A stretch of 39,981 bases of DNA from Armatimonadota bacterium (lineage in GTDB: Bacteria > Armatimonadota > Armatimonadia > Armatimonadales > Armatimonadaceae), in the NCBI GenBank assembly GCA_014380985.1, contig JACMIU010000073.1:1-39981 (forward strand), given 5' to 3'. The position numbers were made by a program, and so were the translations under genes. Of this stretch, positions 9,478 to 30,230 are shown in pieces. How positions within the stretch are numbered: the stretch's first letter is position 1; the number at the start of each line of letters is the position of its first letter. The notes beneath the pieces are model-generated. The model searched no databases. It was given only the letters and a program-made list of their open reading frames with translations, and was not told the DNA's origin.

Positions 9478-9583
9478 CAAGGATGACTCCGTCGTCTGAG
9501 GCGGTGGAGCGGGTGGTCGCGGGTTTCCGCGTGATGTTTTGAAAGCAGTGCGTTGCATAAACGTTTCTCGAAAATAGGAAGCG

Positions 9584-12084: not shown

Positions 12085-12086
12085 CC

Positions 12087-12971: not shown

Positions 12972-14212
12972 ATCTCGGCACTCCTTTATCGGTGGTCTGC
13001 GTTCAAATAGCCAATGGCTATTCGCCGGAGTTTCGTGTCTTTGACCGGATGTCACGGGTGAGTCACGACGCGCTAAAAGCGACGGTTATCTATAACCGCT
13101 GGAACGAGACGGATGGCGATGCACCGCGTTTTGCCGCCCGCGCCGCCCAAGAAACTCAGCCACCGATGCACGGCGTTGATTTCGGCTGGCGATCCGTCGC
13201 GGCGGGGCGATCCTTCGCGCAGAAAGCGTTGCCCTATGTGCGCCTCGCGGCGTCGCTTCCCACGGTGCTTCACCGAACGCGGCAGGCAAAACCCGACGTT
13301 ATCTATTCGTCGCAACAGTTGTGGGACTGCCGCGTCGCTACCTTTTTGGCAAAACGGCTCCGCGTTCCGCAGGTGATTCATCTGCATTACCACGTTGGCA
13401 AATGGCTCCACCAACCGGTACTGAACCGCTTGCTCGCGTGTGATCATGTGGTTACGGTGAGCGATTTTATCCGCCGGGAGGCTTTGCGCCACGGCGTCGC
13501 CCCGGAGCGCGTGACCACGATTTTGAACACGGCGGATCCGCTCACGCTATCGCCGGAAGGTTCCCGCGAAGCCGTCCGCGCCGAACTCGGTGTCGCGCCG
13601 GACGCGCCTTTTTGGGGCAATATTTCGCGCCTTGACCCGGAGAAGGGGCAGGAAGATATTCTGCGCGCTTTTGCCCGCGTCGTGCGTGAGTTTCCCGAAG
13701 CGCGGCTTCTTATCGTCGGTTCGGAAACGCCGTGGAAGCCCGGCTACCGCGCTCATCTGGAAACGCTCGCGGCTGAACTAAAAATTGAGAGGCAAGTGAT
13801 CTTCGCCGGTTTTCGCTCCGACGTGCCGCGCCTTCTTGCCGCGCTCGACGGCTTTATTCATCCGTCGTTCAAGGAACCGTTCGGTCTCGCCATAGCGGAG
13901 GCGGCGCAAGCGGGATTACCTATCGTGGCGTATGCCGATGGGGGAACGCCGGAACTGGTGCATCATGGGGTCACGGGGCTGCTCGCCGAACTTTCCGCCG
14001 GGCATACCGGGCTTGCGGAAGCATGGGCGGCACTCATCGGCGACCCGCAAACGGCGCGGCGCATGGGGCGGGCGGCAAAAACGTGTATCACATCGGGCGC
14101 GTTTGTGCCGCAGTTCGCATCGCACTCTTTCCTGCAGACGCTCTGCCGCGTCGTCCGCGTGTCGCCCGCTCCGCTTGCCGCATCCGTGGCAACGCAAAAG
14201 GTGACATTATGA
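12968..14212 (+). CDS. Glycosyltransferase, GT4 (GT-B) family
   Basis: 414 aa. Motifs: RLDPEKGQEDILRAF and GFIHPSFKEPFGLAIAEAAQAGLPIVAYADGGTPELVHHGVTGLL (E-x7-E type). ATGA overlap with the previous gene. Confidence 0.85.
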   Translation: MNLGTPLSVVCVQIANGYSPEFRVFDRMSRVSHDALKATVIYNRWNETDGDAPRFAARAAQETQPPMHGVDFGWRSVAAGRSFAQKALPYVRLAASLPTVLHRTRQAKPDVIYSSQQLWDCRVATFLAKRLRVPQVIHLHYHVGKWLHQPVLNRLLACDHVVTVSDFIRREALRHGVAPERVTTILNTADPLTLSPEGSREAVRAELGVAPDAPFWGNISRLDPEKGQEDILRAFARVVREFPEARLLIVGSETPWKPGYRAHLETLAAELKIERQVIFAGFRSDVPRLLAALDGFIHPSFKEPFGLAIAEAAQAGLPIVAYADGGTPELVHHGVTGLLAELSAGHTGLAEAWAALIGDPQTARRMGRAAKTCITSGAFVPQFASHSFLQTLCRVVRVSPAPLAASVATQKVTL

Positions 14213-15150
14213 CGCCGCTTGTCTCGACCGTGATACCGACGCGCAACCGCGCCGCCATGCTCGCGTTCGCGGTTCGCTCCGCGCTGGCACAAACGGACGC
14301 GAACGGCGACCCGGTTTCGCAGGAAATCATTATCGCCGACGATTGCTCCACCGACAACACGCTTGCGGTCGCTCTCGCCTTGAAGCAAGAACAGCCGGAA
14401 CGGGTGCGATACCGGCGCGTTCAAACCGGAACTCCCGGTGGCACACGTAACGCGGGAGCGAAGTTCGCCACCGGGAAGTATCTCGCCTTTCTCGACGACG
14501 ACGACGCTTGGCTACCGGGTCGGCTCACAAAGGCATTAACCGCTTTCGCCGCGTCGCCGCAAGCGGGCTTTGTTTATGCCCAAGCCACGCCGACGGATGC
14601 CTTCCTGCATCCGGCGAGCGACTCGCGTAACGATTTCCCCCTGCTTCCCCTGCCTGAAGGACACCCGGTAGGGGCGTTTCTCGCGTCGCCCCCGCACCTG
14701 AATGCGACCCTGTTCCGACGCGACGCTTTCGAGCTAGTCGGTGGATTCAATGCCACGTTGTCCGGGTTCGAGGATGCCGATTTGATGATACGTATGGTGC
14801 GCCGGTATCCGTGCGTCGCCGTGCAGGAACCGCTCGCCCTGATGCGTACCCACGCCGACAGTTTGAACAGTGGCGTCAAGGTGTGGCAACGCTTTCAGGA
14901 CGAACTACGCGCCCGTCGGTTTCATCTGTCCGTGCGCGACGATTACCGCCCTAACTTTGCCGAGCGTTTGCGCCTTTCCCTGCGGTGTCGCGGCTGGTAT
15001 GTGAGCCGGTTTTTGGGCGCGGTGGAGCGGGCGACGCGGCGTGAGGAAGTGCGCGAGGGAGTGCGCTACGCCCTTCGTACCTCGCCGCTACACGCTTTGA
15101 AAAGTCCGCTCTTGTGGCGGGCATTGATGATGAAAGGCGGAAACTCATGA
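14209..15150 (+). CDS. Glycosyltransferase, GT2 family
   Basis: Motifs: MTPLVSTVIPTRNRAAMLAFAVRSAL...IIIADDCSTDNT...YLAFLDDDDAW (DxD). The start at 14209 forms an ATGA overlap with the upstream stop. The track ORF starts earlier, at 14023. Confidence 0.85.
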   Translation: MTPLVSTVIPTRNRAAMLAFAVRSALAQTDANGDPVSQEIIIADDCSTDNTLAVALALKQEQPERVRYRRVQTGTPGGTRNAGAKFATGKYLAFLDDDDAWLPGRLTKALTAFAASPQAGFVYAQATPTDAFLHPASDSRNDFPLLPLPEGHPVGAFLASPPHLNATLFRRDAFELVGGFNATLSGFEDADLMIRMVRRYPCVAVQEPLALMRTHADSLNSGVKVWQRFQDELRARRFHLSVRDDYRPNFAERLRLSLRCRGWYVSRFLGAVERATRREEVREGVRYALRTSPLHALKSPLLWRALMMKGGNS

Positions 15151-16235
15151 CGCATCATTTTGCTTTCGTGATGGATCAGCCGTCGCGTTCCTACACCGAA
15201 TCGCTCACGATTGAGCGCGTTGTGATGAGCGATAGCTCGATTGCGCCTACCTTTGTTCCCGTGCGCTACGACCTTGGCGGCAAACCGCTCCTTGCCGCAC
15301 TAAGTCTTTTTCCCAACACCGTGCGCGACACACTTGCCGGTATCGAGGAGATTCATCGCGGTCTTGCCGGGAAACGACCCGACGCGGTGCTATGGGCGAC
15401 CGGCGCGGCAAAATCGGTGATGGGTCTGGTTTCCTCCGCGCCCGCTTTTCTCGTGGTGGAAATGACTCCGCTACAAAAAGAACGAATGGAATCGCAAAAA
15501 GAACAGTCCGCCGTTCGGAGAACGTTTCTGCGCGACGCGAATCACGCCACCACCGCGCAGTTGTATGACCGGGCGGCGCATCTGTTTGTGGGAAGCGAGT
15601 GGGTGGCAAGAAGCCTACGCCACGATTACGCCGTGCCGTCCGAAAAAATAACCGTTGTCAGACCCGGTGTAGACACGGGGCATTTTTGTCCCGCCACGAT
15701 CTGTAAATCCAGAAGCGGAGTGGTACGGCTTTTAGTCGTCGGCAACGACTTTTACGGCAACGGGGGCGAACTGCTCTTGAAATGGGCGCAACAAACGCGA
15801 ACGCCCGTTCCGTGGGAGTTGCATTTGGTGACGAGCGACGCGATGAAGGTTTTACCGCCCGGTGTGTTCACGCATCCCGCTGTGCAAAGCAATAGTCCGG
15901 AACAGTTGCGCCTTTATCAGACCTGCGATTTGTTGGTGCAACCGGCGTGTGCCGACAACAATTCGCTGGCGGTGGTCGAGGCGATGGCAACGGGGCTACC
16001 CGTACTCGCCGCCAACACCTGCGGCGTTTGTGAAATTGTCTCCGAAGGCGAAACCGGAATGCTGTTTGCTCCGAAGGATTTTGACACACTGGCGGCGCGT
16101 CTGAACACTTTGATAGAATCGCCCGACCTGCGCCGGGAGATGGGAAACGCCGCCCGCGAACGCGCCGTGCGCCTTTTCGATGCCCGCCGCAATATCGGGC
16201 GTATTTTAACCACCATGCACGAGGTAGCGGCGTGA
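15147..16235 (+). CDS. Glycosyltransferase, GT4 (GT-B) family
   Basis: C-terminal NSLAVVEAMATGLPVLAANTCGVCEIVSEGETGMLF. The start at 15147 (MTHHF) forms an ATGA overlap with the upstream stop. Confidence 0.8.
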   Translation: MTHHFAFVMDQPSRSYTESLTIERVVMSDSSIAPTFVPVRYDLGGKPLLAALSLFPNTVRDTLAGIEEIHRGLAGKRPDAVLWATGAAKSVMGLVSSAPAFLVVEMTPLQKERMESQKEQSAVRRTFLRDANHATTAQLYDRAAHLFVGSEWVARSLRHDYAVPSEKITVVRPGVDTGHFCPATICKSRSGVVRLLVVGNDFYGNGGELLLKWAQQTRTPVPWELHLVTSDAMKVLPPGVFTHPAVQSNSPEQLRLYQTCDLLVQPACADNNSLAVVEAMATGLPVLAANTCGVCEIVSEGETGMLFAPKDFDTLAARLNTLIESPDLRREMGNAARERAVRLFDARRNIGRILTTMHEVAA

Positions 16236-16272
16236 AAGTCCGCTACCTGCAACTAACAAGGAAACGAAAACT

Positions 16273-17217
16273 ATGAACAGAATCGCCGTTGGCGCACTCA
16301 CCGTTGCGCTCTTAGCCTCGCTCGCCGCGAACGCTCTGCTATACACGCGCTACTCCGCGAGCCGTCCGCTTCTCACGATGGGCGACACCGTGGTAACGCG
16401 CAAGGATTACCGCGACGCCCTTGATACGCAGCACGGCAAGACAGTGCTACGCAAACTCGTGCTTTCCCGGTTGGTCGAGCGCGAAGCCCGCAAAGCGGGT
16501 GTGCTACCCACGACCGTGCAGGTAGACGAACGCTTGAAAAAGTTAGAAAGCACCGCGCCTGCCGTAGTACGGGCGGCACAAGCGGATGCGGCGCGTCTGT
16601 ACACTTTGCGTACCGACGTGTTCAACGACCTTGCGCTGGACGCATTGCGGATGCGCGAAGTAAGCGTGAGCGACGCGCAGGTTGCTGACTACTATGCGAA
16701 AAACCGCGCCCAGTTTGTGCGCCCGATGCAGGTGGATACCACGGCGGTGATGACGGCGACCGAGAGCGATGCCGCGACCGCCGCGACGCTTCTGAAGCAG
16801 GATATGAAGCCACATATCATCGCCCGACAGCCACGCATGAACGTGGTCGGTATACGCGGTTTTCAACCGGACTTTAGCAAACTCGCCCCTGCCGACGCGA
16901 CGCGACTGGAAGGCGCGATGCGAAACACCAAGCCGGGTCAGGTAACCACCGTGCTACTACAAGGCAACTTTCTGGTGTTCCGGGTGCGCCGACAACAGGG
17001 TACGCAAGTGCTAACGCTTGCGGCGGCGCGAGACGAAGTGAAACGGCAGGCGACGCTCGCGCAAGCCCCCTCACAACAAGAGTATCTCGTCCGTCTGTAT
17101 CAGGAATCTCACCCGGTATTCGAGGCAAACCAGTATGCCGAGTACTTCCGCGAGTTCGAGGAAGCGCGTGTCGCTCCGGCGAAGCCAGTGGCAACAAGGC
17201 AGACCGCGTCGCGCTAA
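16273..17217 (+). CDS. Membrane-anchored SurA/PpiD-like periplasmic chaperone with an apparently degenerate parvulin region (EpsD-like position)
   Basis: N-terminal anchor MNRIAVGALTVALLASLAANALLY. SurA-N-like segments are VVTRKDYRDALDTQHGKTVLRKLVLSRLVEREARKAGV and VSDAQVADYYAKNRAQFVRP. The C-terminal GQVTTVLLQGNFLVFRV resembles a rotamase strand, but I do not see the usual parvulin His residues. Confidence 0.6.
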   Translation: MNRIAVGALTVALLASLAANALLYTRYSASRPLLTMGDTVVTRKDYRDALDTQHGKTVLRKLVLSRLVEREARKAGVLPTTVQVDERLKKLESTAPAVVRAAQADAARLYTLRTDVFNDLALDALRMREVSVSDAQVADYYAKNRAQFVRPMQVDTTAVMTATESDAATAATLLKQDMKPHIIARQPRMNVVGIRGFQPDFSKLAPADATRLEGAMRNTKPGQVTTVLLQGNFLVFRVRRQQGTQVLTLAAARDEVKRQATLAQAPSQQEYLVRLYQESHPVFEANQYAEYFREFEEARVAPAKPVATRQTASR

Positions 17218-17475
17218 AACCGCTGCTGCTCCGTGCGCTCTATCGAAAGGTAGAGAGGAACCTCTTTATAAAAGCCCTGATGAAAAAGGCTACCTTGCTA
17301 TAAGATTAGAGAGAACGAGCGTTATATCGTTCTCGCGGAGCAAACGTGCAATCACCATCTGCGCGGGAGGAGAAGCGACATACCGCCTTCCTCCCGCCAC
17401 CACTTTTCCGCGAATAGGCGCGGACTTGACCGGTGCTATAAAGTCAGCACCAATGTATTGTAAAGGATAAACATT

Positions 17476-18123
17476 ATGTCCAATAAAATCAACCTCGGTC
17501 TCGTCTCCGCGCTCGGCATCGCCCTGCTCGGCTTCGGAACCACCGCCGCCCATGCCGACATCGTACCCGGTGTTGGATCGCCCACCGTGGCAGCAAGCGG
17601 AACCGGCACCTTTCTGTTCACCTACGAAATCTTCGTAACCAACACGCAACAAGTCAACACGGGCGACTTTTTCGTGATCTATGATTTCGCAGGTTTCGTA
17701 GCGGTGGACTCGGCTCCGGGAGCATACTCGTTTACCAACCAGTTGCTTGGTCCGAACCCCGTGCTTAGCTCGCAAGGTGGTGTTATTGCAACGGATAGCG
17801 CGACGCTTCAAAACGTCACGTTCACCTACACCGGTGGAGCCACGATCTTCGGGGGACCGACTTCGCTCGGATTCTTCACGATTGAGTCCATCTTCGGCAC
17901 CGCCTCGACCACGACGGCGTTTGTCGGAGCCGGAACCGACCAAGAAACGGGTTTGCAAAACGCGAACATCACCAACGTGTTGACGCCGACCGCAAGCGCG
18001 ATTCCCGAACCGGGTGAGTGGGCGTTCGCCGGATTCGCCGGTATGAGCGTTCTCGGACTTGTCGTTCGCGCTCGCAAAAACAAAATGTCCGGTGTTAAAA
18101 CCACCGGCGTTGCAACCGCATAA
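17476..18123 (+). CDS. PEP-CTERM sorting-domain protein (exosortase substrate)
   Basis: Signal peptide MSNKINLGLVSALGIALLGFGTTAAHA. The C-terminus AIPEPGEWAFAGFAGMSVLGLVVRARKNK is a PEP motif, a TM helix and a basic cluster, followed by an extra 12 aa (MSGVKTTGVATA). AAAGGA lies 8 nt upstream of the ATG. Confidence 0.85.
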   Translation: MSNKINLGLVSALGIALLGFGTTAAHADIVPGVGSPTVAASGTGTFLFTYEIFVTNTQQVNTGDFFVIYDFAGFVAVDSAPGAYSFTNQLLGPNPVLSSQGGVIATDSATLQNVTFTYTGGATIFGGPTSLGFFTIESIFGTASTTTAFVGAGTDQETGLQNANITNVLTPTASAIPEPGEWAFAGFAGMSVLGLVVRARKNKMSGVKTTGVATA

Positions 18124-18291
18124 GGAGCCATTGCCATTACCGCCAAAGAAAATATAACGCTTGACACCCGCGACCTCAGGGAAGATGCCGAAACGGCAAA
18201 CACGTTCCCCCCGCCCTTCCAAGGCACATTAGCGGCGAAACAGGCAGACCTATCGAACGGAGTTGCCGCAAGCGCGATAACCCCGCTCACT

Positions 18292-19116
18292 TTGGCGGTG
18301 ATGGCGGGCGCGGTGACATTGTTCGTCGCGCTCACTTTGCCCCTTCTCTCGTGGTGGTACTGGGAATACACCAAGCCCGACACCTACTACGGCTACGCTT
18401 TGTTTGTGCCGGTTCTCGCCGGGGTCATGCTCTGGCACAAGCGCGGCGACCTTCGCAAAACGCCGATTCGCGTTTTCAACCCCGCCTTGCTTCTTTTGAT
18501 CGCGTCGCTCACCCTGTTCGTTGTAGCGAGCAAGACCGATATGCAGGCGGTAATGTCCACCACCTTTTTGCTGTCGCTGATCTTCAGCATCTGGTTTGTA
18601 GCCGGCACGGCGTTTGTTCGTGCGGCGGGCTTTCCGCTCCTTTTTCTGTTTCTGATGGCTCCCCTGCCGGGCCCCCTTCTGAACGACGCGACGCTGGGAT
18701 TGCAACGCCTTTCTACGTCGGGCGCGGCTGTGATGCTCAAACTTATCGGGTTCGCGCCGCAGGTGCAGGGCAATGTCCTGAATCTGGGCAACTTCGTGAT
18801 GGAAGTGGACGTGCCTTGTTCCGGGTTCAAACTACTGCTTTGCTTGCTGACTTTCGGCGCGGCGTTCGCCTATCTGTCGGACACGACGCGGGTGCGCCAA
18901 TTCGCCTTGTTTGCCGCCGTGTTGCCGCTTAGCCTCGCGCTCAATGCGATTCGTATCACGCTCTTTGGTGTGGTTGGCGAGTGTTTGGGTGCGTCCGCCG
19001 CACACGCTTTCCACGATTGGAGCGGTTTTATCATGCTCGGACTGTGTATGGCTGCCCTGTTCGGCTTAGCGAAAGGACTCGGATGCAAAAACTTCGCCGG
19101 TCTGCCCTTGTTTTAG
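18292..19116 (+). CDS. Exosortase (EpsH/Xrt family, 8-TM transpeptidase)
   Basis: 274 aa, polytopic. Family landmarks in order: YYGYALFVPVL, LMAPLPGPL, catalytic-Cys context VDVPCSGFKLLL, Arg in LNAIRITL and His in FHDWSGF. Annotated from a TTG start. Confidence 0.85.
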   Translation: MAVMAGAVTLFVALTLPLLSWWYWEYTKPDTYYGYALFVPVLAGVMLWHKRGDLRKTPIRVFNPALLLLIASLTLFVVASKTDMQAVMSTTFLLSLIFSIWFVAGTAFVRAAGFPLLFLFLMAPLPGPLLNDATLGLQRLSTSGAAVMLKLIGFAPQVQGNVLNLGNFVMEVDVPCSGFKLLLCLLTFGAAFAYLSDTTRVRQFALFAAVLPLSLALNAIRITLFGVVGECLGASAAHAFHDWSGFIMLGLCMAALFGLAKGLGCKNFAGLPLF

Positions 19117-19760
19117 TCGGTGTTTTCGCTGCGACGCTCGCCGCGTCCGCCGCGTGGAATCCGCCGCCGCCCGCGCCCTTTGTGCCGATTGGCGAATCGG
19201 CGGTGCCGCGGGAACTCGTCGGTTATGCCGCTCCTGTCGATGGACAAAGCCCCGTGAGCGAGCAGGTTCGCACCGTGCTATCGTCCGCGAGTATCATCGC
19301 CCGTACCTACCTGCCCGCCGAACCTACCTCCGGCTCTTCCCCGGTCGAGTTTATTTTGATTGGCGGAACCGACCGCAGTGCCTTGCACGATCCGCGCTCC
19401 TGTTTAATCGGTTCGGGCTGGACGATTGAGAGCGACGCGGCAACCACGCTCCCCGGCGCGGTTCCGGCGCGGCGGTGTCGCATCGTCAACAATACCCTGC
19501 CCGAACGACCCGGCTACGAAATGGTTTATCTATATGTCGTGGACGGCGCGGTGATTGAGAGCGTCACGCAGATTCGCGCCCGTATGCTGGTCAGTGCTGT
19601 GTTGGGCAGAAAAAATACCCCGGTTTACTTTCTGCGCTTTATGCGCCCTATCACCGATGAGGAAACCGGCACGGACGGGGAACTTATGCGGTTCGCCGGG
19701 GCGATGTGGTACGAACTTGCCCTGACAAATCCAGCAGAAAAAATCGTCCGCGTACCGTAA
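19083..19760 (+). CDS. EpsI-family exosortase-associated protein
   Basis: Start at ATG 19083 (MQKLRRSALVLVGVFAATLAASAA, membrane anchor), overlapping the exosortase 3' end by 34 nt. It carries the EpsI-like motif LHDPRSCLIGSGWTI. The track ORF begins earlier, at 18981. Confidence 0.75.
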   Translation: MQKLRRSALVLVGVFAATLAASAAWNPPPPAPFVPIGESAVPRELVGYAAPVDGQSPVSEQVRTVLSSASIIARTYLPAEPTSGSSPVEFILIGGTDRSALHDPRSCLIGSGWTIESDAATTLPGAVPARRCRIVNNTLPERPGYEMVYLYVVDGAVIESVTQIRARMLVSAVLGRKNTPVYFLRFMRPITDEETGTDGELMRFAGAMWYELALTNPAEKIVRVP

Positions 19761-19772
19761 AGACACGCGGAC
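19746..19772. terminator. Bidirectional intrinsic-terminator-like hairpin between the convergent EPS operons
   Basis: gtccgcgt (19746-19753), an 11-nt loop containing the EpsI stop, then acgcggac (19765-19772). On the plus strand it is followed by GATTGATTTTG. On the minus strand it is followed by GATTTTTTCTG. Confidence 0.5.
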
Positions 19773-19792
19773 GATTGATTTTGCGAAACCCT

Positions 19793-22531
19793 CTATGGAA
19801 TCACCGGGAACGAGTTTAGCACCTCGAATCCCATGTTGTCCCAGTGCCGCTCGTCCGCGAACGGGCGATGATTGACCCAGTACGAATCGCCGGTTGGGTA
19901 GGCGATTGCTTCGCTTCGCTCCAAGCCGGTGTGATACACCTGATGCAGGAAATAGACTTTGGCGCGGGTGAATGGCAGAGTAACGCCGCCGGGGAATATC
20001 TTGTCCTTGACCAGTTTGCCTTCCTCCATGATCAGGAAGCGGTTGCGCGATAGGTATAAATCAAAGCGATGCCGCTTGTCAAGGTCTGCCGGAGAGCCGT
20101 TGAACGCCGGTAGGTCGCTCCAAACGATGTGGCGGCGTGACGGCGGTCCGAAACTGTCGGGCCCCACGCCGTTCGCTTGCTCAAAAAGCGGAACCGTGAT
20201 CAGTTTGCCCGCCGCGTCCTTGCCACGCACGATTTTACCGGTGTGTACATCTTTGAGTATCTGCCACAGAAACACCTGCCCGGACACGGTGGGAAGCAAG
20301 TTCTTCCCCTCAAAACCGTTGCCCGGATGCAGCAGGGTATCGTCTTCCCCGGCAATCAGAACATCGCACCAGCGGCGACCGCTAAAGTGTGCGTCCACCT
20401 CGAACGTAACATGAAGGACCTTATTTCCCGAAAAGTTCGCCACTGCGTTCGGCTCCATCACGAGCGAGGCATACGCCGTGTGTAGGGGACTACTCACGCC
20501 GGGGGTTCCACCGTCGTAAAGCGTGTCCATAAAGTGATTGCTCATCACGAAGGCACGGCTGTTTTTCTGGTCGCCGCGCACGTTATACAGCGTCCACTTA
20601 TCGTTTTTGACCGCCTGCACTTCGCCGGGATTGGCGGCAAGCATCGCAGGGGGAACCGACGCGGATACGAAAGCCTTGCTGTTTCGGAAGGTGTCGAAGA
20701 ACGCTTGCGCTCCGTGCAGTGTACGGGCGACCGGCGTCACCGTGGTAGGAGCCGACGACGCCAGCACGACCGGAATGTTCGACGGATCGCCCAAACCGTT
20801 GATCGCCATGCTGATATGTCCCTCGTGACCGACCGCACCGGGTCCCATCATGCCGTCCATCTTCTGAAACGGCCCCCACTTGTCCACCGCCTCCACTACT
20901 AACACGGCGGGAGTGCCGGGGGTCAGACCGTTCATTTCCGCGCTTAAGCCGCCGCCGCTATACTTATACGTGCCGGGCGTCGCCATATTGTAAACGCGGT
21001 AGTCAACCGCGCCGGGAACCGCGTCAAAGTACAGTATTACACTGTCATCATTTGGCACGACGCGCTTGATGATAACCTTTCCACCAGTAATCGGGGCGGC
21101 GGACACGCGCACCGTGACGGGAGCGGAACGCGCCCCCTCTGCCGCCACTTGAAACGGAAGATTGACCCCCGCGACCGTGTAGGTGGCGGTGTCACCGACC
21201 CGCACGGCGTTATCAAGCCATGTTTGCCCCCAAAGGTCGCGGGCAACCTTCACGCCGTTTTTATACACATCGAACGTGTAGGCGTTCGAGCCGCCCTGCC
21301 ACGCTAAAGAAACCCGTGGCGAACCGGCATTCCACTGCGTCGCGGCGGTAAGTGTATGCGGCGCGAGCGGCAGACGCGGCACCCAATTCGGCGGGCTGGA
21401 AGGGTTTAATCCTCCCTGTGCGCCCACGGTGTTGCTCGGAAGCGTTTCTGCGCCGCCAGCGTCCACAGCGGTCACGGTATAGGTCATACCCTTGACATAC
21501 TTGCTGGCGGGAACGGTGTATGTCGGGCGGGTCACGCCGGTTCCGATTAATGTGTCGTACTGGTAGATGTTGTAGGATGCCGCGCCGGTGACTGCGTCCC
21601 ATGTCAGGGCATCGGAAGGAGCGTTCGCGCCTGCGTCCCAGATTCCCGCGATGCGCAGGTTGTTAGGAGCCGTTTTTCCCGTTGACGCGACCGGGGCGAA
21701 AGGTGCGGTTCCCTGTGCCGGTGCGCTTTTCGGACTTTCGCGCCCGTCTGCGGCGACGCCGGTAACCCGGTAAATATAAGTTTGCCCCGATAGGACGGAC
21801 ATATCTTCCCAGTTGGTCGTGGTAACGCCGGTTTTGATGCGAACCTCGTCACGGTATACGTTGAACTTCGTCAAAGGGACGCCGGTCGTCGGACGCGCCC
21901 AAGAAAGCGCGATATGCGCCATCGCCTGCCCGTTGCAACAAGAGTTGCTCCACGCGCCGAGCGCGGTGAGGTTCACTGGAGCGGTGGGAGCCGACGTATC
22001 GGTGGTGACGGGAACGGAAAACAGGCGATTACTCGGAACTACTTGCCGACTTTGACCGGGATATTGCCAGAACAACCGGGCGATGGCGTCGCCAGTGTAT
22101 TCGCGGTATTCGATGCGAATATCGTAGCGGCGTCCGGCTTGCAATGTGATGGAGCGACCGAAAAATACAATCTCATACTGGTTTTGTGGAATGTCTAACA
22201 ACAGTTGGTTGTCTACATAAACACGCACAATATCATCCACGCGAGTGGAGAACGTATACGTGCCGCTTACCGGTGCTTCGATCTGTCCCGACCACTTCAC
22301 GCGGAAATTATCCGCCGCGATGCCGGGTGCGGGGGACTGGCTTCCCCATGTGAAATCAATCGCGGGGTCGGTACGCCGCACGGTGGTCGTACCGGAGGAA
22401 TACTCGCCGAGTAATCCGTTCACCATGCCACTTTGGGCAAAACTATTGCTTGAAAAACATACCATGATTGCATTGATAGCAACCAAACTAATTAGGGAAG
22501 CGGGACGCTTGGGGCAAACTGTCCATCGCAT
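19793..22531 (-). CDS. Large secreted protein: PA14 domain + about four FN3-like modules + about 350-aa C-terminal domain of unknown family
   Basis: 912 aa. Signal peptide ...MVCFSSNSFAQ. The PA14 pattern reads GLLGEYSSGTT...IDFTWGSQSPAPGIAADNFRVKWSGQIEAPVSGTYTFSTRVDDIVRVYVDNQLLLD. FN3-like repeats are shown by LSWARP...YIYRVTGVAADGRES, LTWDAV.GAASYNIY...YTVTAVDAGGAE, LAWQGG...YTVAGVN and YRVYNM. The C-terminal region has no motif I can place. Confidence 0.85.
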   Translation of the reverse strand: MRWTVCPKRPASLISLVAINAIMVCFSSNSFAQSGMVNGLLGEYSSGTTTVRRTDPAIDFTWGSQSPAPGIAADNFRVKWSGQIEAPVSGTYTFSTRVDDIVRVYVDNQLLLDIPQNQYEIVFFGRSITLQAGRRYDIRIEYREYTGDAIARLFWQYPGQSRQVVPSNRLFSVPVTTDTSAPTAPVNLTALGAWSNSCCNGQAMAHIALSWARPTTGVPLTKFNVYRDEVRIKTGVTTTNWEDMSVLSGQTYIYRVTGVAADGRESPKSAPAQGTAPFAPVASTGKTAPNNLRIAGIWDAGANAPSDALTWDAVTGAASYNIYQYDTLIGTGVTRPTYTVPASKYVKGMTYTVTAVDAGGAETLPSNTVGAQGGLNPSSPPNWVPRLPLAPHTLTAATQWNAGSPRVSLAWQGGSNAYTFDVYKNGVKVARDLWGQTWLDNAVRVGDTATYTVAGVNLPFQVAAEGARSAPVTVRVSAAPITGGKVIIKRVVPNDDSVILYFDAVPGAVDYRVYNMATPGTYKYSGGGLSAEMNGLTPGTPAVLVVEAVDKWGPFQKMDGMMGPGAVGHEGHISMAINGLGDPSNIPVVLASSAPTTVTPVARTLHGAQAFFDTFRNSKAFVSASVPPAMLAANPGEVQAVKNDKWTLYNVRGDQKNSRAFVMSNHFMDTLYDGGTPGVSSPLHTAYASLVMEPNAVANFSGNKVLHVTFEVDAHFSGRRWCDVLIAGEDDTLLHPGNGFEGKNLLPTVSGQVFLWQILKDVHTGKIVRGKDAAGKLITVPLFEQANGVGPDSFGPPSRRHIVWSDLPAFNGSPADLDKRHRFDLYLSRNRFLIMEEGKLVKDKIFPGGVTLPFTRAKVYFLHQVYHTGLERSEAIAYPTGDSYWVNHRPFADERHWDNMGFEVLNSFPVIP

Positions 22532-22774: not shown

Positions 22775-23356
22775 TCAGTCAGGAAGTGTGCGAATGACCC
22801 GTGCTGGAACCCCGCCGACAACTGTGTGTGGCGGCACGTTGCGGGTGACGACCGCACCCGCGCCAACTACCGCGCCGCGTCCGACCGTGATACCCGGTAA
22901 CAAAGTCACGTTCGCGCCGATCCATGCCCCGGACTCAATTTTGACCGGAGCCGGTCGGTGTCCGCCCGCACGACGGTCGGGATTGCCGATGTCATGTCCG
23001 GTGGTAATAATTACCACGTGATGCCCGACGGAAACGCAGTCGCCAATCGTTATCGGCGCGGTGGCGTCGAAATGAAGCGGGGCATTCAAGCAACATCGTT
23101 CGCCGATGGTAATACGTGCTTTAATGCCGCGCCCACAGGAAAACGTCGCCGGTCCGTGAAACACGGTTCCCTGCCCAACTTGCACGCCCAGAGCGTGATA
23201 CAGACGCGCCCGAAGGCGGCTTCCGGTTCCGGTAGGCAGAAGCCGACCGAGGATATTTGCCAGCCACAACAGTGGTGCGGCGGGCGTGGTTTCTTCGCGG
23301 GCGACATCGGCTAAATGGCGTAACTGCGCGGCGGCGGGTGCATTCGAGATAAACAT
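22775..23356 (-). CDS. Hexapeptide-repeat (LbH) O-acetyltransferase, WcaF/maltose-acetyltransferase-like
   Basis: IESGAWIGANVTLLPGITVGRGAVVGAGAVVTRNVPPHTVVGGVPARVI, with upstream hexapeptide turns. Confidence 0.85.
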   Translation of the reverse strand: MFISNAPAAAQLRHLADVAREETTPAAPLLWLANILGRLLPTGTGSRLRARLYHALGVQVGQGTVFHGPATFSCGRGIKARITIGERCCLNAPLHFDATAPITIGDCVSVGHHVVIITTGHDIGNPDRRAGGHRPAPVKIESGAWIGANVTLLPGITVGRGAVVGAGAVVTRNVPPHTVVGGVPARVIRTLPD

Positions 23357-23415: not shown

Positions 23416-24360
23416 TTAAGCCTTCGCTTTGACGGGCGTGTCGGCGGCGATATAGAGACGGTGCGAAATATCCACCATGTAGCCCCGACTACGCCTCAGT
23501 CCGTCGCGGAAACCTTTCAGATACGACCACTGATCGGCGGCGGCTCTGCCGCAAATCGCCCGTACCACGCCGCGCAGAAGGCTACGCACTATCTTTTTCC
23601 AGATGGTTTGCCGCGCCCACCCATCGCCGCACCGGGCGTGTTTGCTATAGAACGCCGCGTCGCCTTGACCGTAGGAGCACAGTACGTCTTTCCAGCGGTC
23701 ACGGGTGCGAAACGACTTATGTATCACGGTAAGCGTCGGCTCGGCGACGATCTTTAGCCCCGCCGTTTGTGCGCGGTAGGTGAAATCGAAGTCTTCGCCG
23801 CCTCCGAACGCCCCGCCCGCCCCCAGCACGACATCGTACTTGCCAATCACGGAAATAATCTGTTTGCGGAAAGCCATATTTGCCGCCATACCGAATATAG
23901 TGCCCTTTTTTATTTCGCGGTGCGTGTCAAAATGCAGACACGGAACCACCAAAGAGGGATCACCTACGTACTCATCGGGCATCAAGACCTGCCCGTACAG
24001 CATCATGAGTTTCGGGTCGGCGAGAAAAAGCGCGGCGATTTTCGCCACCCAATCCGTGGGAACCCAACAATCGTCGTCAGTGAAGGCGACGACTTCGCCA
24101 GTCGCTTCCGCGAGTGCTACATTGCGGGCGAATCCTAATCCGCGTGTATCGGTGCGGATATAGCGAACCGCGACGCGCCCGCCGCATTCCACTTGGCATT
24201 GTTCGACAATTTTGCGCGTGTCGTCGTTGTCGCTTTGATCCACCACTGACACGGTGAAAGAACCGTAATCGTTGGCAAGCACGCTCCGCAGGGCGTGAAT
24301 CAGTTCGTCGGCGCGGTTGCGCGTACAGATAAGTACCGAAACCAATGGGGTAAGTTGCAT
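23416..24360 (-). CDS. Glycosyltransferase, GT2 family
   Basis: MQLTPLVSVLICTRNRADELIHALRSVL...VSVVDQSDNDDT...VVAFTDDDCWV (DxD). Confidence 0.85.
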   Translation of the reverse strand: MQLTPLVSVLICTRNRADELIHALRSVLANDYGSFTVSVVDQSDNDDTRKIVEQCQVECGGRVAVRYIRTDTRGLGFARNVALAEATGEVVAFTDDDCWVPTDWVAKIAALFLADPKLMMLYGQVLMPDEYVGDPSLVVPCLHFDTHREIKKGTIFGMAANMAFRKQIISVIGKYDVVLGAGGAFGGGEDFDFTYRAQTAGLKIVAEPTLTVIHKSFRTRDRWKDVLCSYGQGDAAFYSKHARCGDGWARQTIWKKIVRSLLRGVVRAICGRAAADQWSYLKGFRDGLRRSRGYMVDISHRLYIAADTPVKAKA

Positions 24361-24363
24361 CGT

Positions 24364-25770
24364 TTATATAGCCTCCTTGAGTTTGCTCGGTGATAAGGGG
24401 GTGTCGTGCCGCGTTTGTAGCACGGCATCGTGTCGCGCCACAGGCGGGGACGCGAGTTCCGGTAAAAGGGCGCGGGCATAATGAATTAGCAGAAACGCTT
24501 CGAGAACTGCGTCGGCGGCTATCGCCCCGAACGCCCCGTTTTGCAGAAATCGCTCGCCCGCCCAGATACAAACGCCACAAACGGGAAACGCCAGCAGGGC
24601 GGCGATTCCGGTGACTTTGGCGAAAACCGCCTGTTTTCCCGCCGCGATAAGCGCGGTTCCGACCCCCTGCTGAAGAAACCAGAGAACGATCACGCATCCC
24701 ATCAGCCGAAGCACCGGGATACTTCCGGCGAATCCCACCGGGTAGCGCAGTAGGCGTAGCAACGCTTCAGGAAAAATAATCAGTGTCAGTGCGACGGGAG
24801 CCGCACAAACGAGCAGAAGCGTGACCATGCGGCGCACCGCTTGCGCGTAGTCGGTGCGGTTCCCGGCGTGATAAAGGCGCGTCAGAATCGGTAGCATCGC
24901 CCCGGCGACCGCCACGGGAATCATCTGCGCCGCTCCGGCAAATCGCTTGGCGAGACCGAACCAGCCGATAGATTCCAGCGTGGAAAGTTTAGACATCAGC
25001 AGTGCCGACGAGCCATCTCCGTAGATCGAAACAAACAGCATAGCGGATAGAAACGGCAACCCGGCGAGAGCAAGCGAGCGCAGTTCGCCGCGAGAAGCGG
25101 GAAGCGCGACATCGTTTGCCCTATCCCTGTCTGCCGCGCCCTCCGTTGTCGCCTTCATCAGGGTCACGGGCAGAACTTGCCGCACTGCTCGCCATGACAA
25201 CGCCGCCCCTATCAGTGTCACAGGCAGGTACACAGCGACAAACGACCAGAGCGGGGCGCGGGCAAATATCAAAGCGACCGTTAAAACCGACAGCACTATT
25301 TTTTCCACCAGCGATGCCACGTTTTGTTTCGGGAACTCTTCCAAGCCGCGTAGCACCGCCGCGAGCGATTCGGCGGTTTGTCCGGCGATGGTAGTAATTA
25401 GGGCGAGCAGAATCACCAGACGCACTTCGCCCGTGTAGCCGAGGATAAATGTCGCCGCTGTGCCGAGCGTCAGCACTATGAGTCCCATCAGCGAGCGAAG
25501 CACCACGGCGGTACGTAGCAGAGCGGTGGCACGCTCCGGGGCTTGCGCGATTTCGCGCACCAGTACGGTGGAGGTTCCGAAGCCGACGAAAACGCTTAGT
25601 AGCCCGGCGAATGCCCCAGCAAGCGTGAGAACGCCGAGGTTTTTTTCACCGAGGTACGCGGGCAAAAACAGTGTTACCGCGAGCGTGATCGCCCAAGAAA
25701 GCCCCTGCGTCACAAGTGTCGAGCCGATGTTGCGCCCGGATTTGCCGGGTAGAAGGGTGGACAGGTTCAT
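24364..25770 (-). CDS. Wzx-type oligosaccharide flippase (MOP/polysaccharide biosynthesis protein family)
   Basis: 468 aa with about 12-14 predicted TM helices throughout. It sits between a GT2 gene and a Wzy-like gene, and its start forms an ATGA overlap with the upstream gene's stop. Confidence 0.8.
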   Translation of the reverse strand: MNLSTLLPGKSGRNIGSTLVTQGLSWAITLAVTLFLPAYLGEKNLGVLTLAGAFAGLLSVFVGFGTSTVLVREIAQAPERATALLRTAVVLRSLMGLIVLTLGTAATFILGYTGEVRLVILLALITTIAGQTAESLAAVLRGLEEFPKQNVASLVEKIVLSVLTVALIFARAPLWSFVAVYLPVTLIGAALSWRAVRQVLPVTLMKATTEGAADRDRANDVALPASRGELRSLALAGLPFLSAMLFVSIYGDGSSALLMSKLSTLESIGWFGLAKRFAGAAQMIPVAVAGAMLPILTRLYHAGNRTDYAQAVRRMVTLLLVCAAPVALTLIIFPEALLRLLRYPVGFAGSIPVLRLMGCVIVLWFLQQGVGTALIAAGKQAVFAKVTGIAALLAFPVCGVCIWAGERFLQNGAFGAIAADAVLEAFLLIHYARALLPELASPPVARHDAVLQTRHDTPLSPSKLKEAI

Positions 25771-27293
25771 CGGGAACCTTTCGTGCTTGCGGCGGGCAGA
25801 GGGGTATAAACCCCGGCGAGCGAGCCGAGCCAGATTCCTGCGAACAGCATGGAACGGTAATTCGAGAGTTGCATATCATACAAACCGAACACGAGCAGCG
25901 CGACAAGCACACCCAAGCAAAACACGCCATGCGTGCGGATGAGAACAGGAACATCTTCGCTTCGTGCCGCCCGGCAACACAGGATAATCGCGGCGCACAC
26001 CATCACCCAAAACGCGACGAAACCGACCGTGCCGACGCGCATCCAGACCCACAGAATCTGGTTGTGCGGCAACAAATCCCACCACTCGTAGGTGTCGCTA
26101 ATATCGGCAATCGGAACCACGTGAAGCATTCGCTTGCCGTAGCCGTAGCCTTGCACCGGGGCAAGCCGAATCGTCGCCATCTGGTTAGCGTTCTCGGCAT
26201 CGCGGTAGATATTCGAGGACGCATCGCGGGCATCCGGCTCGAAGTTCGAGCGAATCGCACGGGCGGGCTGGGCAATAGCGGCTTCGCTGTTTTTGAAAGC
26301 CCCGTAATATAAAGGTCCAAAGCAAGCGATGGCGAGTCCGAACGCCGCGATACCCCGGCGGCAGTGTGGGAACGCCCGGTAGGCGGCGAGAAGCAACATT
26401 GGTAAGGCAATCAGTAGTGCGGCGGTTCCGGCGCGGCGGTTGGTGGCAAGATTTCCGGCTACAATAAGAGGCAGGTTCAGCCACAGAAACGTGCGTAGAG
26501 GGCGGTACGACGGATCGTTGGCGAGCGATAGCACGAAAAGTAGTATTCCAAAGGCGCAGAAAAAGAACGCTTCCTCGTGCGAGCCGACCCCCTGATCCGG
26601 GAGCGGTTGCCCGCCGAGAGTGACATAGCGGCGATACGTATACAAAAGCCCTTTCAGGCTAACGCACAGTGCCATAACCCAGTACAGAACCATCAGTTGT
26701 TTCGGCTCGCGTGTCAGGTGCAGAGCGACAAAATAACCGACGACAAAATAGAACTGGGCGCGTACCTCTTGAAGCGATAGTTTGAAATCGCCGCCGGTCG
26801 CCATGCCGTTCATCCAACCCCACAGCACGAAAAACAGATATAAAAGCACCGGCACGAGCAGGATTCCCCCGCGTAGGCGCAGACTTTTGGTGAAGGTGGC
26901 ACGCACCAGAGAGAAGGCTCCGGCGACGATTAACACCACTTCCGCCAAGTTGAGTGGAATCGCCTTAAAGTCTACGTGGGCATACACTTGAAAAATCGTG
27001 TTCACGTTCCAAAAGAACGGAACGCGCTCGGTGAGAGAGTCGGCGTACTCGGACGGAAACAGTTCAAATAAACAAACCGATGCAAATACAATATGCAAGA
27101 CGGCTTTTGTCGAATACCACAGCACCATCGGAATCAGCAGAAGCAGGATCAAAATTGCCGGTAGCAGGGCACTATCAAGTCCGAACGCGGTGTACGCCGC
27201 GCCGAGAAGCACGGTCAGCGCGGCGGAACCGACCAGAAAGGTGCGTTCGCGCCGCTTGGTATCCCCGGCGAGGGTGGCGATGTTTAACGGCAT
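25767..27293 (-). CDS. Wzy / O-antigen-ligase-like polymerase (polytopic membrane protein)
   Basis: 508 aa, highly hydrophobic, with a larger loop region (NSEAAIAQPARAIRSNFEPDARDASSNIYRDAENANQ...) typical of the Wzy_C family. The call rests on topology and context, not on a strict motif. Confidence 0.7.
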   Translation of the reverse strand: MPLNIATLAGDTKRRERTFLVGSAALTVLLGAAYTAFGLDSALLPAILILLLLIPMVLWYSTKAVLHIVFASVCLFELFPSEYADSLTERVPFFWNVNTIFQVYAHVDFKAIPLNLAEVVLIVAGAFSLVRATFTKSLRLRGGILLVPVLLYLFFVLWGWMNGMATGGDFKLSLQEVRAQFYFVVGYFVALHLTREPKQLMVLYWVMALCVSLKGLLYTYRRYVTLGGQPLPDQGVGSHEEAFFFCAFGILLFVLSLANDPSYRPLRTFLWLNLPLIVAGNLATNRRAGTAALLIALPMLLLAAYRAFPHCRRGIAAFGLAIACFGPLYYGAFKNSEAAIAQPARAIRSNFEPDARDASSNIYRDAENANQMATIRLAPVQGYGYGKRMLHVVPIADISDTYEWWDLLPHNQILWVWMRVGTVGFVAFWVMVCAAIILCCRAARSEDVPVLIRTHGVFCLGVLVALLVFGLYDMQLSNYRSMLFAGIWLGSLAGVYTPLPAASTKGSR

Positions 27294-27399
27294 AGCGTCC
27301 CCGCTTCGTCAAGGGGCGACACCGAACACGCCGCTACGGTAGCGGTTCTTGCGTGGTTTTCCCCGACGAGTCGCGTATTGTCGGTAGCGCGTGATAATA

Positions 27400-27534
27400 T
27401 CATGACTTAAAAAAGTTATAAAGAACGACCAGCAGAATCCAAGCGGTCAGCCCCGCCCAAAGCCGGGGCGTCATGCGCGGCGCGAGCAAGCCGAGGGCGA
27501 GCGCGGCAAGCACGATGGGTAGCATGATATTCAT
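27400..27534 (-). CDS. Possible 44-aa two-helix membrane mini-protein (below the ORF-track cutoff)
   Basis: My reverse-strand translation gives MNIMLPIVLAALALGLLAPRMTPRLWAGLTAWILLVVLYNFFKS followed by TGA. It fills most of the 300-nt gap between the ATPase and polymerase genes. There is no clear SD. Confidence 0.3.
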   Translation of the reverse strand: MNIMLPIVLAALALGLLAPRMTPRLWAGLTAWILLVVLYNFFKS

Positions 27535-27594
27535 GACGACATCACTTTCGGGTTTTTCGCGGGCGCAGGGCGAGGCACCAAGAAAGAACGCACT

Positions 27595-28578
27595 TTATCC
27601 CCACCCTCTTTTGTCGAAACCACGGCTTAACCACTGCGGAAGCGGCGATTCCTGCCCATTCAGCACCACGCCGATAACGTTTGCCCGCCCAACGCGCTCG
27701 ATAGCGTCGGTCGCCACGTCTTTCGGGGTAACACCGGCACGTACCACCATCACCACGCCTTGCAAGTGGTTTTGAATCGGGAATGTGTTGCCGCTGGCGA
27801 CGCTCGGTAAATCCACCACAATCAGGTCTGCCCATGCCCGCGCAATGGCGAACAGATCGCCCATGCGCGGCGAGTGCGCGGTTTTTTCGGCGCGGCGCGG
27901 GATTTTGCCGGACGGGAGCAGATACAGGTTTTTTAGATTCTCGCACTGCAAAAGCGGAAGCGGCAAAAAGTTCGGTTCGGAATCGCCATCCCATTCCAAA
28001 ACATCCACCGCCCCATGCACCGGGGTAGCGATTCCGAGGCGGTGGCACAGCACATCCTGTCCCAAACCCAAGTCTATCAGGCAGACATTTCGGTAACTGT
28101 TGTGGGCGAGCGCGAGCGCGATATGCAGCGCGGTGGTAGTTTTTCCTTCTCCGGGGACGGCACTGGTGACGCCGATTACGGTGGCGGTGTTCGCCGTGCC
28201 GCGCCGCGCCGCCGCGCCGAACCGGGGCGCGGGCGTATGGCGCGATACATCGCCCCCCGCTTCGCGGTAGCGAAGCAGAATCGTTTCGCTAATCGTCGCC
28301 GCCTGCGTTCCGAGCAAGGTTTCCTGCACCGTGTCGGGATAGGCGGTAACGGCTTCGACGCGCACCGGTAGCGCGGCTTCGTGCGCGACTTCGATGGTTG
28401 TCACGGTTTGCTGTTCGGCATAGGAGCGCAGGTCGGCGCGGCGGAACGGGTCACGCACCCCGGCATCACCAAAGGAAGGCGCGACCGGAGAAGGCACGGC
28501 AGAGTGGCTTTCGGCGACTATACCGGCGAACGATTCTTTTTCGACGGGATTATTACCCGTGAGCGACGATGGCATCAT
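27595..28578 (-). CDS. BY-kinase-like P-loop ATPase (CpsD/CapB/EpsG-like) lacking a C-terminal tyrosine cluster
   Basis: The start at 28578 (MMPSSL) forms an ATGA overlap with the upstream PCP stop. Walker A is VPGEGKTTTA at about residue 143. The Walker A'-like motif is VCLIDLGLGQD and Walker B is DLIVVDLPS. The last 55 aa contain no Tyr. Confidence 0.75.
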   Translation of the reverse strand: MMPSSLTGNNPVEKESFAGIVAESHSAVPSPVAPSFGDAGVRDPFRRADLRSYAEQQTVTTIEVAHEAALPVRVEAVTAYPDTVQETLLGTQAATISETILLRYREAGGDVSRHTPAPRFGAAARRGTANTATVIGVTSAVPGEGKTTTALHIALALAHNSYRNVCLIDLGLGQDVLCHRLGIATPVHGAVDVLEWDGDSEPNFLPLPLLQCENLKNLYLLPSGKIPRRAEKTAHSPRMGDLFAIARAWADLIVVDLPSVASGNTFPIQNHLQGVVMVVRAGVTPKDVATDAIERVGRANVIGVVLNGQESPLPQWLSRGFDKRGWG

Positions 28579-30194: not shown

Positions 30195-30230
30195 AAAAAG
30201 ATAGATTCCTTGGGAAACTTGCTAATGCCA

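Follow-up and report, generated by a model that had tools for sequence, protein, structure and literature searches.

The locus and its 912-residue protein

The stretch of DNA analysed here, called the window, comprises 39,981 nucleotides of contig JACMIU010000073.1 from an Armatimonadota bacterium (assembly GCA_014380985.1) and is an XrtA-like exopolysaccharide (EPS)/exosortase locus. Its minus strand carries, as the last of a series of EPS genes, the gene for a secreted modular protein of 912 residues, and the large C-terminal domain of this protein is the subject of the present analysis. The domain founds an undescribed protein family, is modeled as a β-jelly-roll of the concanavalin-A-like type, and may form the working end of an enzyme acting on the EPS that the surrounding genes produce. 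The coordinates of the gene, its domains, the conserved motifs, and the neighboring gene groups are collected in Table 1.

Open reading frame, start, stop, and N-terminal hydrophobicity agree with the description given in the first-pass annotation of this DNA, namely a 912-residue protein with a signal peptide. The N-terminus, MRWTVCPKRPASLISLVAINAIMVCFSSNSFA|QS, was recognized as a Sec signal peptide by reading and by a hydrophobicity score rather than by a dedicated predictor. The PA14 domain claimed to follow it scores above the Pfam gathering cutoff. About four FN3-like spacers had been counted between PA14 and the C-terminal region, and four modules (residues 179–282, 283–380, 381–478, and 479–557) indeed display a common FN3 pattern on alignment, in agreement with repeat-shifted BLAST matches; within the first of them, Pfam (residues 207–274) reports RGI_lyase-beta above and fn3 below the cutoff. 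The fourth module is, however, no spacer but part of the C-terminal unit, which starts near residue 485, because homology to distant relatives spans query residues ~485–905 and thus includes it. The protein ends directly after its last β-strand (DERHWDNMGFEVLNSFPVIP, ...FEVLNSFPVIP). No PEP-CTERM tail (PEP motif, hydrophobic helix, and basic cluster) was found at this C-terminus, as had been stated before, and an identity as exosortase substrate was rejected on these grounds. LPXTG and lipobox signals for cell anchoring were likewise not found in the protein.

Table 1. Coordinates of the gene, its domains, conserved motifs, and neighboring features in the window
Feature	Coordinates	Strand	Basis or remark
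Whole gene, 912 residues plus stop (ATG start, TAG stop)	19793..22531	minus	Open reading frame list, translation check
Sec-type signal peptide, residues 1–32, predicted cleavage SFA|QS	22436..22531	minus	Sequence reading and hydrophobic core score
PA14 domain, residues 44–167, glycan-binding type	22031..22402	minus	Pfam PF07691, E 1.6e-27, 96.5 bits vs cutoff 24
Three FN3-like repeats, residues 179–478, stalk/spacer	21098..21997	minus	Pfam on repeat 1, internal repeat alignment, repeat-shifted BLAST matches
Fourth Ig/FN3-like module, residues 479–557, packed on the jelly-roll and conserved with it	20861..21097	minus	Distant homology, AlphaFold2, Ig hidden Markov model E 1e-22
New-family domain, residues 575–907: N-terminal NGxG-containing segment and concanavalin-A-like β-jelly-roll	19811..20809	minus	AlphaFold2, Foldseek, hidden Markov model envelope 575–907
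Conserved strand HFMDTLYDG, residues 666–674 (H666, M668, D673)	20510..20536	minus	Column counts, strand assignment
Candidate catalytic strand H-V-T-F-E-V-D-A-H, residues 707–715	20387..20413	minus	Column counts, strand assignment
RRW motif, residues 719–721 (R720)	20369..20377	minus	Column counts
D818-x-R820-x3-D824 motif	20060..20080	minus	Column counts
H863-x-x-Y866-H867 motif	19931..19945	minus	Column counts
C-terminal strand DERHWDNMGFE, residues 893–903, H896 invariant	19823..19855	minus	Column counts, strand assignment
Hexapeptide-repeat sugar O-acetyltransferase (WcaF/maltose-acetyltransferase-like, below curated cutoffs), upstream neighbor	22775..23356	minus	Pfam, NCBIfam
Rest of the EPS cluster: family 2 glycosyltransferase (GT2), Wzx flippase, Wzy polymerase, tyrosine kinase, chain-length determinant, Wza-like exporter	23416..31529	minus	
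Convergent module: priming sugar transferase, WecG-family glycosyltransferase, GT4, GT2, GT4, peptidyl-prolyl isomerase (PPIase), PEP-CTERM protein, exosortase, EpsI	11383..19760	plus	
Intrinsic-terminator-like hairpin, 15-bp stem, 8 GC pairs, T-run, 17 nt after the stop	19742..19776	minus	Overlaps the 3′ end of the convergent EpsI gene

An undescribed family with a concanavalin-A-like fold

The C-terminal region (19796..20854, corresponding to residues 560–912) had been reported to match no recognized family, and the peptides quoted for it were all located in the translation (FFDTF at residues 611–615, HQVYH at 863–867, and the HFMDTLYDG, RRW, and DERHWDNMGFE motifs of Table 1). In line with that report, neither the single sequence nor a 75-sequence profile of the region returned a match in Pfam, NCBIfam, or the sequences of the PDB, and PHROGs holds no family matching the domain. 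When the C-terminal region, the full protein, and 126 members of the family were scanned with Pfam and NCBIfam, PA14, FN3-like, and accessory modules were all that was found; the glycoside hydrolase (GH) matches among these members are separate, fused GH44, GH5, and GH85_C modules in three to five long proteins. Homologues of the region number 97 (best E 4e-149), all annotated as "hypothetical," and a profile search against 1.8 billion representatives returned 1261 matches with an E-value of 1e-3 or lower, of which 494 reached 1e-10 and 221 reached 1e-30, the last figure corresponding to at least 221 family members counted as clusters at 50% identity. These numbers rule out a chance feature. 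According to a species-level genome scan, the members reside chiefly in Armatimonadota (Capsulimonadaceae, Armatimonadales, and Chthonomonadales) and further in Ktedonobacterales/Chloroflexota, Patescibacteria, Acidobacteriota, and Gammaproteobacteria. The earlier proposal of a module specific to this particular EPS has to be given up, since the domain family extends over at least five phyla and phages.

A typical family member consists of a signal peptide, the Ig-like module, and the domain, and measures ~600 residues. Additional modules borne by some members are FN3-like, PA14, Big_7, DUF11, BNR/sortilin, malectin, mannanase GBD, CarboxypepD_reg, and dockerin, and single fusions exist to GH44, GH5, and a GDSL esterase; in the protein P0195, for example, the domain occupies residues 333–696 and GH44 residues 990–1518. 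PA14 is N-terminal in the window protein and its near relatives and C-terminal in two other members, encoded in a Levyibacteriota and a Lysobacterales metagenome-assembled genome (MAG; L036 9845–11959 and L038 9848–11989, respectively). Because of these opposite positions, the pairing of PA14 with the domain probably arose at least twice independently. Tandem arrays of two to four paralogues directly beside GH44 were seen in Chloroflexota MAGs (L040 4420–14944, L041 7295–13405, and L042 2–6915 plus 11468–13816), and paralogue pairs without GH44 in two Chthonomonadales MAGs (L029 and L031).

AlphaFold2 modeled residues 480–912 as an Ig-like sandwich followed by a large all-β domain (pLDDT 90.6, pTM 0.91), and the domain on its own (residues 575–912) with similar scores (pLDDT 89.5, pTM 0.89); the jelly-roll comprises ~335 residues and packs on the fourth Ig-like module. 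When either model was compared with the PDB by Foldseek, dozens of chains belonging to GH16, the polysaccharide lyase (PL) families PL7 and PL36, lectins, and calreticulin were matched with probability 1.00 and E-values from 1e-5 to 3e-4. GH16 glucanases, carrageenases, and the Crh5 transglycosylase occupy the first ranks for both models (E ~1e-5); close behind come YesU/DUF1961, PL36 and PL7 alginate lyases, staphylococcal lectin A-domains, calreticulin, and neurotoxin-associated domains. A Foldseek search of a viral library returned only generic tail proteins with FN3 and ConA/LamG folds. On the strength of the models, the domain is assigned at the level of the fold to the concanavalin-A-like glucanase/lectin superfamily as a two-sheet β-jelly-roll, that is, to a known fold class, but without a close structural relative. 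The structure prediction and fold search, which had been suggested in the first-pass annotation, brought up neither a characterized family for the region nor disorder or more Ig/FN3 repeats; the latter two are ruled out by models that are confident and globular. Since neither the family libraries nor the PDB contain the domain and a literature search turned up no paper on it, the family is considered undescribed. The fold class and the concept of a locus-encoded EPS-processing protein are already known, while the family itself, its histidine-rich signature, its link to armatimonadotal exosortase EPS clusters, and its distribution in phages appear to be undescribed.

Conserved residues and a putative active site

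Conservation was evaluated over 185 near-complete domains drawn from clusters non-redundant at 50% identity. Forty-two positions are conserved in at least 85% of these domains, most of them His, Asp, Glu, Arg, Tyr, or Trp on predicted β-strands, and ~25 polar positions are near-invariant across the five phyla and phages. H896 is present in all 185 domains, closely followed by D713 (184), D818 (182), H666 and R720 (181 each), H707 (180), H867 and R895 (179 each), Y866, M668, and D673 (178 each), E711 (177), and D824 (176); the columns of R820 (164), H863 (163), and H715 (155) are weaker. Residues H707, T709, E711, D713, and H715 alternate along one predicted strand and therefore share one face. 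Together with the other members of the seven-strand set (H666/M668/D673, R719/R720/W721, D818/R820/D824, H863/Y866/H867, and D893–E903), these residues may line a substrate cleft, as judged from their conservation and predicted strand positions. The E711-x-D713 pair is the preferred candidate for the catalytic residues, by analogy to the E-x-D strand of clan GH-B. Strand 707–715, with His in the third place, may resemble the E-x-D-x(x)-E strand of GH16, a likeness that alignment does not show. The data as a whole fit an extracellular, glycan-directed protein with a conserved site kept under strong selection in bacteria as well as in phages.

The surrounding EPS/exosortase locus

Pfam and NCBIfam assignments of the neighboring genes bear out the placement of the gene in an EPS/exosortase locus, convergent on the exosortase module. 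The minus-strand genes succeed each other in the order Wza-like exporter, chain-length determinant, tyrosine kinase, Wzy, Wzx, GT2, hexapeptide O-acetyltransferase, and the 912-residue protein. The gene had been described as the first of this minus-strand operon; it is in fact the last (3′-most), starting 243 bp downstream of the acetyltransferase gene and backed by the terminator-like hairpin. A scan of the 243-bp gap for sigma-70 promoters returned no site on the minus strand, a negative that is uninformative for this phylum. The stop codons of the gene and of EpsI are 32 nt apart. Neither GH44 nor genes of a uronic-acid pathway were found in the window.

Several further features of the locus deserve mention. 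A secreted protein of 215 residues with a PEP-CTERM-type tail (...IPEPGEWAFAGFAGMSVLGLVVRARKNK...), encoded at 17476–18123 (+) just upstream of the exosortase gene, has no match in Pfam or NCBIfam and is a likely substrate of the locus exosortase. The open reading frames of the exosortase (18292–19116, +) and of EpsI/DUF3485 (18981–19760, +) overlap by 136 nt as listed, and the GTG start of EpsI has for this reason probably been placed too far upstream; each of the two proteins matches part of the fused XrtD model TIGR04152. As the exosortase exceeds only the cutoff of the generic model TIGR02602, it is left untyped. Candidates for the regulation of the EPS locus are a HisKA_3 sensor kinase and a response regulator of the LuxR type (8812–10903, –), whose genes lie ~480 bp upstream of the priming transferase gene in divergent orientation. 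Besides the chain-length determinant and kinase of the main cluster, which form a split pair (27595–30194), a second, full-length Wzz/GNVR plus BY-kinase protein of 754 residues is encoded ~8 kb away from that cluster (842–3106, –). A pilin-like protein with an N-terminal methylation motif (34493–35521, +) and a DnaJ-TPR protein (32929–34266, +) lie just beyond the exporter end of the EPS cluster.

Genomic context across the family and phage copies

Genomic context was counted for loci flanked by 4 kb or more of sequence, probed with the EPS proteins of the window over up to 10 kb on each side. Two or more EPS-type genes accompany the family gene at 19 of 25 loci in Armatimonadota, where an exosortase is found at nine and GH44 at one. 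The nine loci from other phyla include three with at least two EPS-type genes, four with GH44, and none with an exosortase; at the 19 phage loci, all three counts are zero. The family gene (FAM) usually stands in the armatimonadotal order FAM, GT4, PPIase, exosortase, EpsI, WecG, and the locus of the nearest relative (L009, 63% identity) repeats the order of the window (Wzy, Wzx, GT2, Hexapep, FAM). In Ktedonobacterales and on one Capsulimonadales metagenome contig, the family gene borders Wzx/Wzy clusters with a hexapeptide acetyltransferase, WecG, GT2, and GH44. Hexapeptide acetyltransferases recur beside family members, one member bearing a dockerin is flanked by a dockerin-bearing β-propeller protein and a GH5-PA14 protein, and several members have no glycan context at all. 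With its signal peptide and its recurrence in EPS clusters (19 of 25 loci in Armatimonadota and several in Chloroflexota and Acidobacteriota), the family is both secreted and cluster-conserved, as are EPS-locus processing proteins.

The occurrence of GH44 inside Wzx/Wzy-type EPS clusters of Ktedonobacterales and Capsulimonadales (L004/L005 17299–19116, L006 18495–21110, L008 21334–21482, and L025 16815–18026) is an observation in its own right; when the literature was searched, GH44 was not found described as a glycanase of EPS loci.

Nineteen viral loci carrying the domain family were detected in IMG/VR (L055–L073, exemplified by L058 7011–9710). Two metagenome contigs contain a divergent member after a phage tape-measure gene (L053 8001–9860 and L054 8001–9947), in one case two genes upstream of a GH25 lysin, and the proteins from these tail-region contigs retain the signature residues almost completely (35 of 35 in P0087, 34 of 35 in P0095). 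Neighbors of the IMG/VR copies include an HNH endonuclease, a DNA methyltransferase, a primase, and an exonuclease. Because a Sec signal peptide is present at the N-terminus of all four phage copies examined, the phage proteins look like exported soluble proteins. A role as virion tailspike or tail-fiber depolymerase was rejected on account of these signal peptides and of the location of the L058 copy among DNA-metabolism genes.

What the domain may do

The first-pass annotation had left the choice between a polymer-modifying enzyme (lyase, hydrolase, or epimerase) and a matrix-anchoring module. Fold and placement in the EPS cluster fit both, and the evidence leans toward the enzyme; of the chemistries named, epimerization is not favored, as no epimerase appears in the top 50 of each Foldseek search. 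The reading we put forward, with a confidence that comes to about one half, is that the protein is a predicted secreted EPS-processing enzyme, analogous to ExoK. The Ig-like module packed on the jelly-roll would constitute the working end of a Sec-exported modular protein that cuts or remodels, outside the cell, the probably O-acetylated heteropolysaccharide made by the Wzx/Wzy system of the surrounding cluster. The outcome could be chain trimming or release, as brought about by ExoK and ExsH for succinoglycan, while PA14 and the FN3 stalk would hold the enzyme on its polymer. An enzyme is favored by the density and type of the invariant residues, since so many conserved polar residues suit an active site better than a binding module. 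It is favored also because the domain is itself the part to which binding modules are attached (PA14, malectin, mannanase GBD, CarboxypepD_reg, and dockerin are usual companions of enzymes), because its gene recurs in EPS clusters beside that of an acetyltransferase, and because the phage copies are exported. From these observations we infer catalysis, the cognate EPS as substrate, and the identity of the acting residues, and we lean toward hydrolase or transglycosylase chemistry.

A number of observations weigh against this assignment. The structural likeness to the enzymes is remote (TMt 0.4–0.55, root mean square deviation (rmsd) 6–12 Å, ~10% identity), and lectin domains (Aap, Pls, SraP, and calreticulin) score nearly as well in Foldseek as GH16 does. 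No ConA-like, GH, or PL family of Pfam covers the domain in the 126 members scanned, an hhalign comparison of the family profile with the GH16 lichenase 1GBG gave a probability of 0.1%, and the third catalytic Glu of GH16 is replaced by a His that is itself found in only 155 of the 185 domains. Around a quarter of the armatimonadotal loci and most of those in other phyla lack EPS genes nearby, and the rare fusions to GH44 and GH5 could equally be read as the behavior of a binding module.

Some of these points speak for a non-catalytic EPS-binding lectin or matrix scaffold, in which the jelly-roll would bind the polymer and PA14 a second glycan, with the FN3 stalk spacing the two, so that the protein would cross-link or organize the matrix in the manner of the Aap, Pls, and SraP lectin domains or of the Vibrio matrix proteins whose genes lie between the vps clusters. 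L-type lectin A-domains, calreticulin, and neurotoxin-associated binding domains lie near GH16 in Foldseek TM-score, a repeat stalk with a terminal lectin is the layout of biofilm adhesins, the family has no sequence signature of the GH or PL type, and isolated cases of fusion to GH44 and GH5 would be expected of a carbohydrate-binding module. Against a lectin stand the very large size of the domain (~335 residues) and its very tight conservation (~25 near-invariant polar positions), and the lack of a PEP-CTERM, LPXTG, or lipobox anchor. Moreover, the domain usually occurs alone with the Ig module and is itself decorated by PA14, malectin, GBD, or dockerin, the pattern of a catalytic core, and exported phage copies are easier to explain as enzymes. 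The lectin or scaffold is the main competitor of the enzyme reading, though an unlikely one. We think it quite unlikely that the protein is instead an exported enzyme that attacks glycans of foreign origin (β-glucans of plants or microbes, or the EPS of competitors) in the service of nutrition or competition and that it sits in the EPS cluster for incidental or regulatory reasons. Members with a dockerin, beside GH5-PA14 and dockerin-bearing β-propeller proteins, tandem arrays next to GH44 as in degradative loci, and several contexts devoid of EPS genes would suit such a role; the EPS linkage within the clade of the window protein is, however, strong and syntenic (19 of 25 armatimonadotal loci), and the GH44 genes beside members from Ktedonobacterales and Capsulimonadales sit inside Wzx/Wzy clusters.

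The histidine-rich signature raises the question of a metal-dependent enzyme with chemistry other than that of GH or PL families, in which a transition metal (Cu, Zn, Mn, or Fe), bound by H666, M668, H707, H715, H863, H867, and H896, would serve the oxidative or metal-assisted cleavage or modification of the polysaccharide. Six conserved histidines, a methionine two residues past H666 (M668, 178 of 185), strands rich in Asp and Glu, and the absence of the acid/base Glu of GH16 are compatible with such a center; yet it is deduced from residue types alone, no metalloenzyme is listed among the top structural neighbors, and sets of His, Tyr, and Arg suit a metal-free lyase or hydrolase equally well. 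A metal enzyme is distinctly improbable. A long shot, too, is the bolder version of this idea, a new class of carbohydrate-active enzymes with a metal-binding, His-rich center plus E711, D713, and D818 on a ConA-like scaffold and with a mechanism unlike that of GH16 or the jelly-roll lyases; such a class would be common to exosortase-type EPS clusters and exported phage proteins and would cleave or modify exopolysaccharide. Finally, exosortase and EpsI genes within 10 kb of the family gene at nine armatimonadotal loci, and the convergence of the window gene on EpsI with so short a gap between the stop codons, might hint at an accessory of the exosortase pathway, for instance one that processes PEP-CTERM proteins or attaches them to EPS. 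This is very improbable indeed, for no exosortase lies within the examined flanks (up to 10 kb per side) in Ktedonobacterales, Acidobacteriota, Patescibacteria, Gammaproteobacteria, or phages, the shared denominator of the contexts is polysaccharide genes or GH44, and the fold is glycan-directed.

Should the domain indeed be an EPS-processing enzyme, it would represent a new GH or PL family for CAZy and a dedicated matrix-processing enzyme of the poorly studied exosortase/EPS system of Armatimonadota. It would offer a handle on the sizing and release of EPS, a candidate biofilm-dispersing enzyme, and a marker for a type of EPS cluster, and the phage copies with signal peptide would be exported host-matrix enzymes carried by phages instead of tailspikes. 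A lectin, on the other hand, would amount to a new, well-defined glycan-recognition module marking a class of Wzx/Wzy polysaccharides.

Comparison with known systems

Among the best-superposing PDB matches is the uncharacterized, galectin-like YesU/DUF1961 of Bacillus subtilis (1oq1; rmsd 5.9–7.5 Å, TMt 0.49–0.52). YesU is smaller (~220 residues), cytoplasmic or stand-alone, and devoid of an Ig module; sequence similarity is absent, and Pfam reports no DUF1961 match for the domain described here. The L-type lectin A-domains of Staphylococcus epidermidis Aap (7sie/8g1l) and S. aureus Pls (7sjk) and SraP (4m00) share the fold class and similar Foldseek scores, and these proteins likewise have repeat stalks and an association with the biofilm matrix. 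They differ in that their domains are smaller (~250–260 residues) and that the proteins are anchored to the wall via LPXTG, whereas in the window protein an anchor is absent and conserved polar residues are far more numerous.

Lyases that degrade EPS are known from both bacteria and phages. PL7 (AlyA1, 3zpy) and PL36 (Aly36B, 6kcw) resemble the domain in fold class (Foldseek E 3e-5 to 3e-4) and in the presence of conserved His, Tyr, Arg, and Gln on strands. PL7 enzymes work by a His/Tyr-based β-elimination; more generally, catalysis relies on His/Tyr in PL7 or Lys/Tyr in PL36, with an Arg/Gln neutralizer on adjacent strands. The many invariant acidic residues of the domain would, in contrast, be unusual for an enzyme binding polyanions. 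No PL family of Pfam matched any member scanned, and the signature motifs of PL7 were not spotted by eye, no formal test having been made.

GH16 of clan GH-B, represented by the mixed-linkage glucanase of Bacteroides ovatus (5nbo) and by Crh5 (6ibw), shares with the domain the ConA-like jelly-roll, secretion, and an acidic E-x-D pair on a central β-strand (here E711-x-D713), and it holds the top rank in Foldseek. Pfam nevertheless reports no GH16 match in the window protein (max E 1) or in the 126 members, and at its candidate catalytic strand the family reads E-V-D-x-H, Glu being outside the four commonest residues at the third position. In the hhalign comparison, the only stretch to be aligned was WDNMGFEVL of the C-terminal strand of the family, placed on the catalytic strand WDEIDIEFL of GH16, which was treated as a coincidence. 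The domain is, furthermore, ~100 residues larger than GH16, has a histidine-rich conserved set, is obligatorily preceded by an Ig-like module, and reaches a TM-score of at most 0.55. By sequence and motif, the family is hence placed outside GH16.

At the level of function, the comparison is with the processing glycanases encoded in EPS loci, a functional class that includes ExoK, PslG, BcsZ, and AlgL. In Sinorhizobium meliloti, the glycanase gene exoK adjoins the acyltransferase gene exoH, and acylation modulates the cleavage of succinoglycan by ExoK and ExsH (PMC4916376). ExoK is thus encoded in an EPS cluster beside an acyltransferase gene and trims the polymer (PMC4916376), and the gene described here is similarly adjoined, in its EPS cluster, by that of a hexapeptide acetyltransferase.

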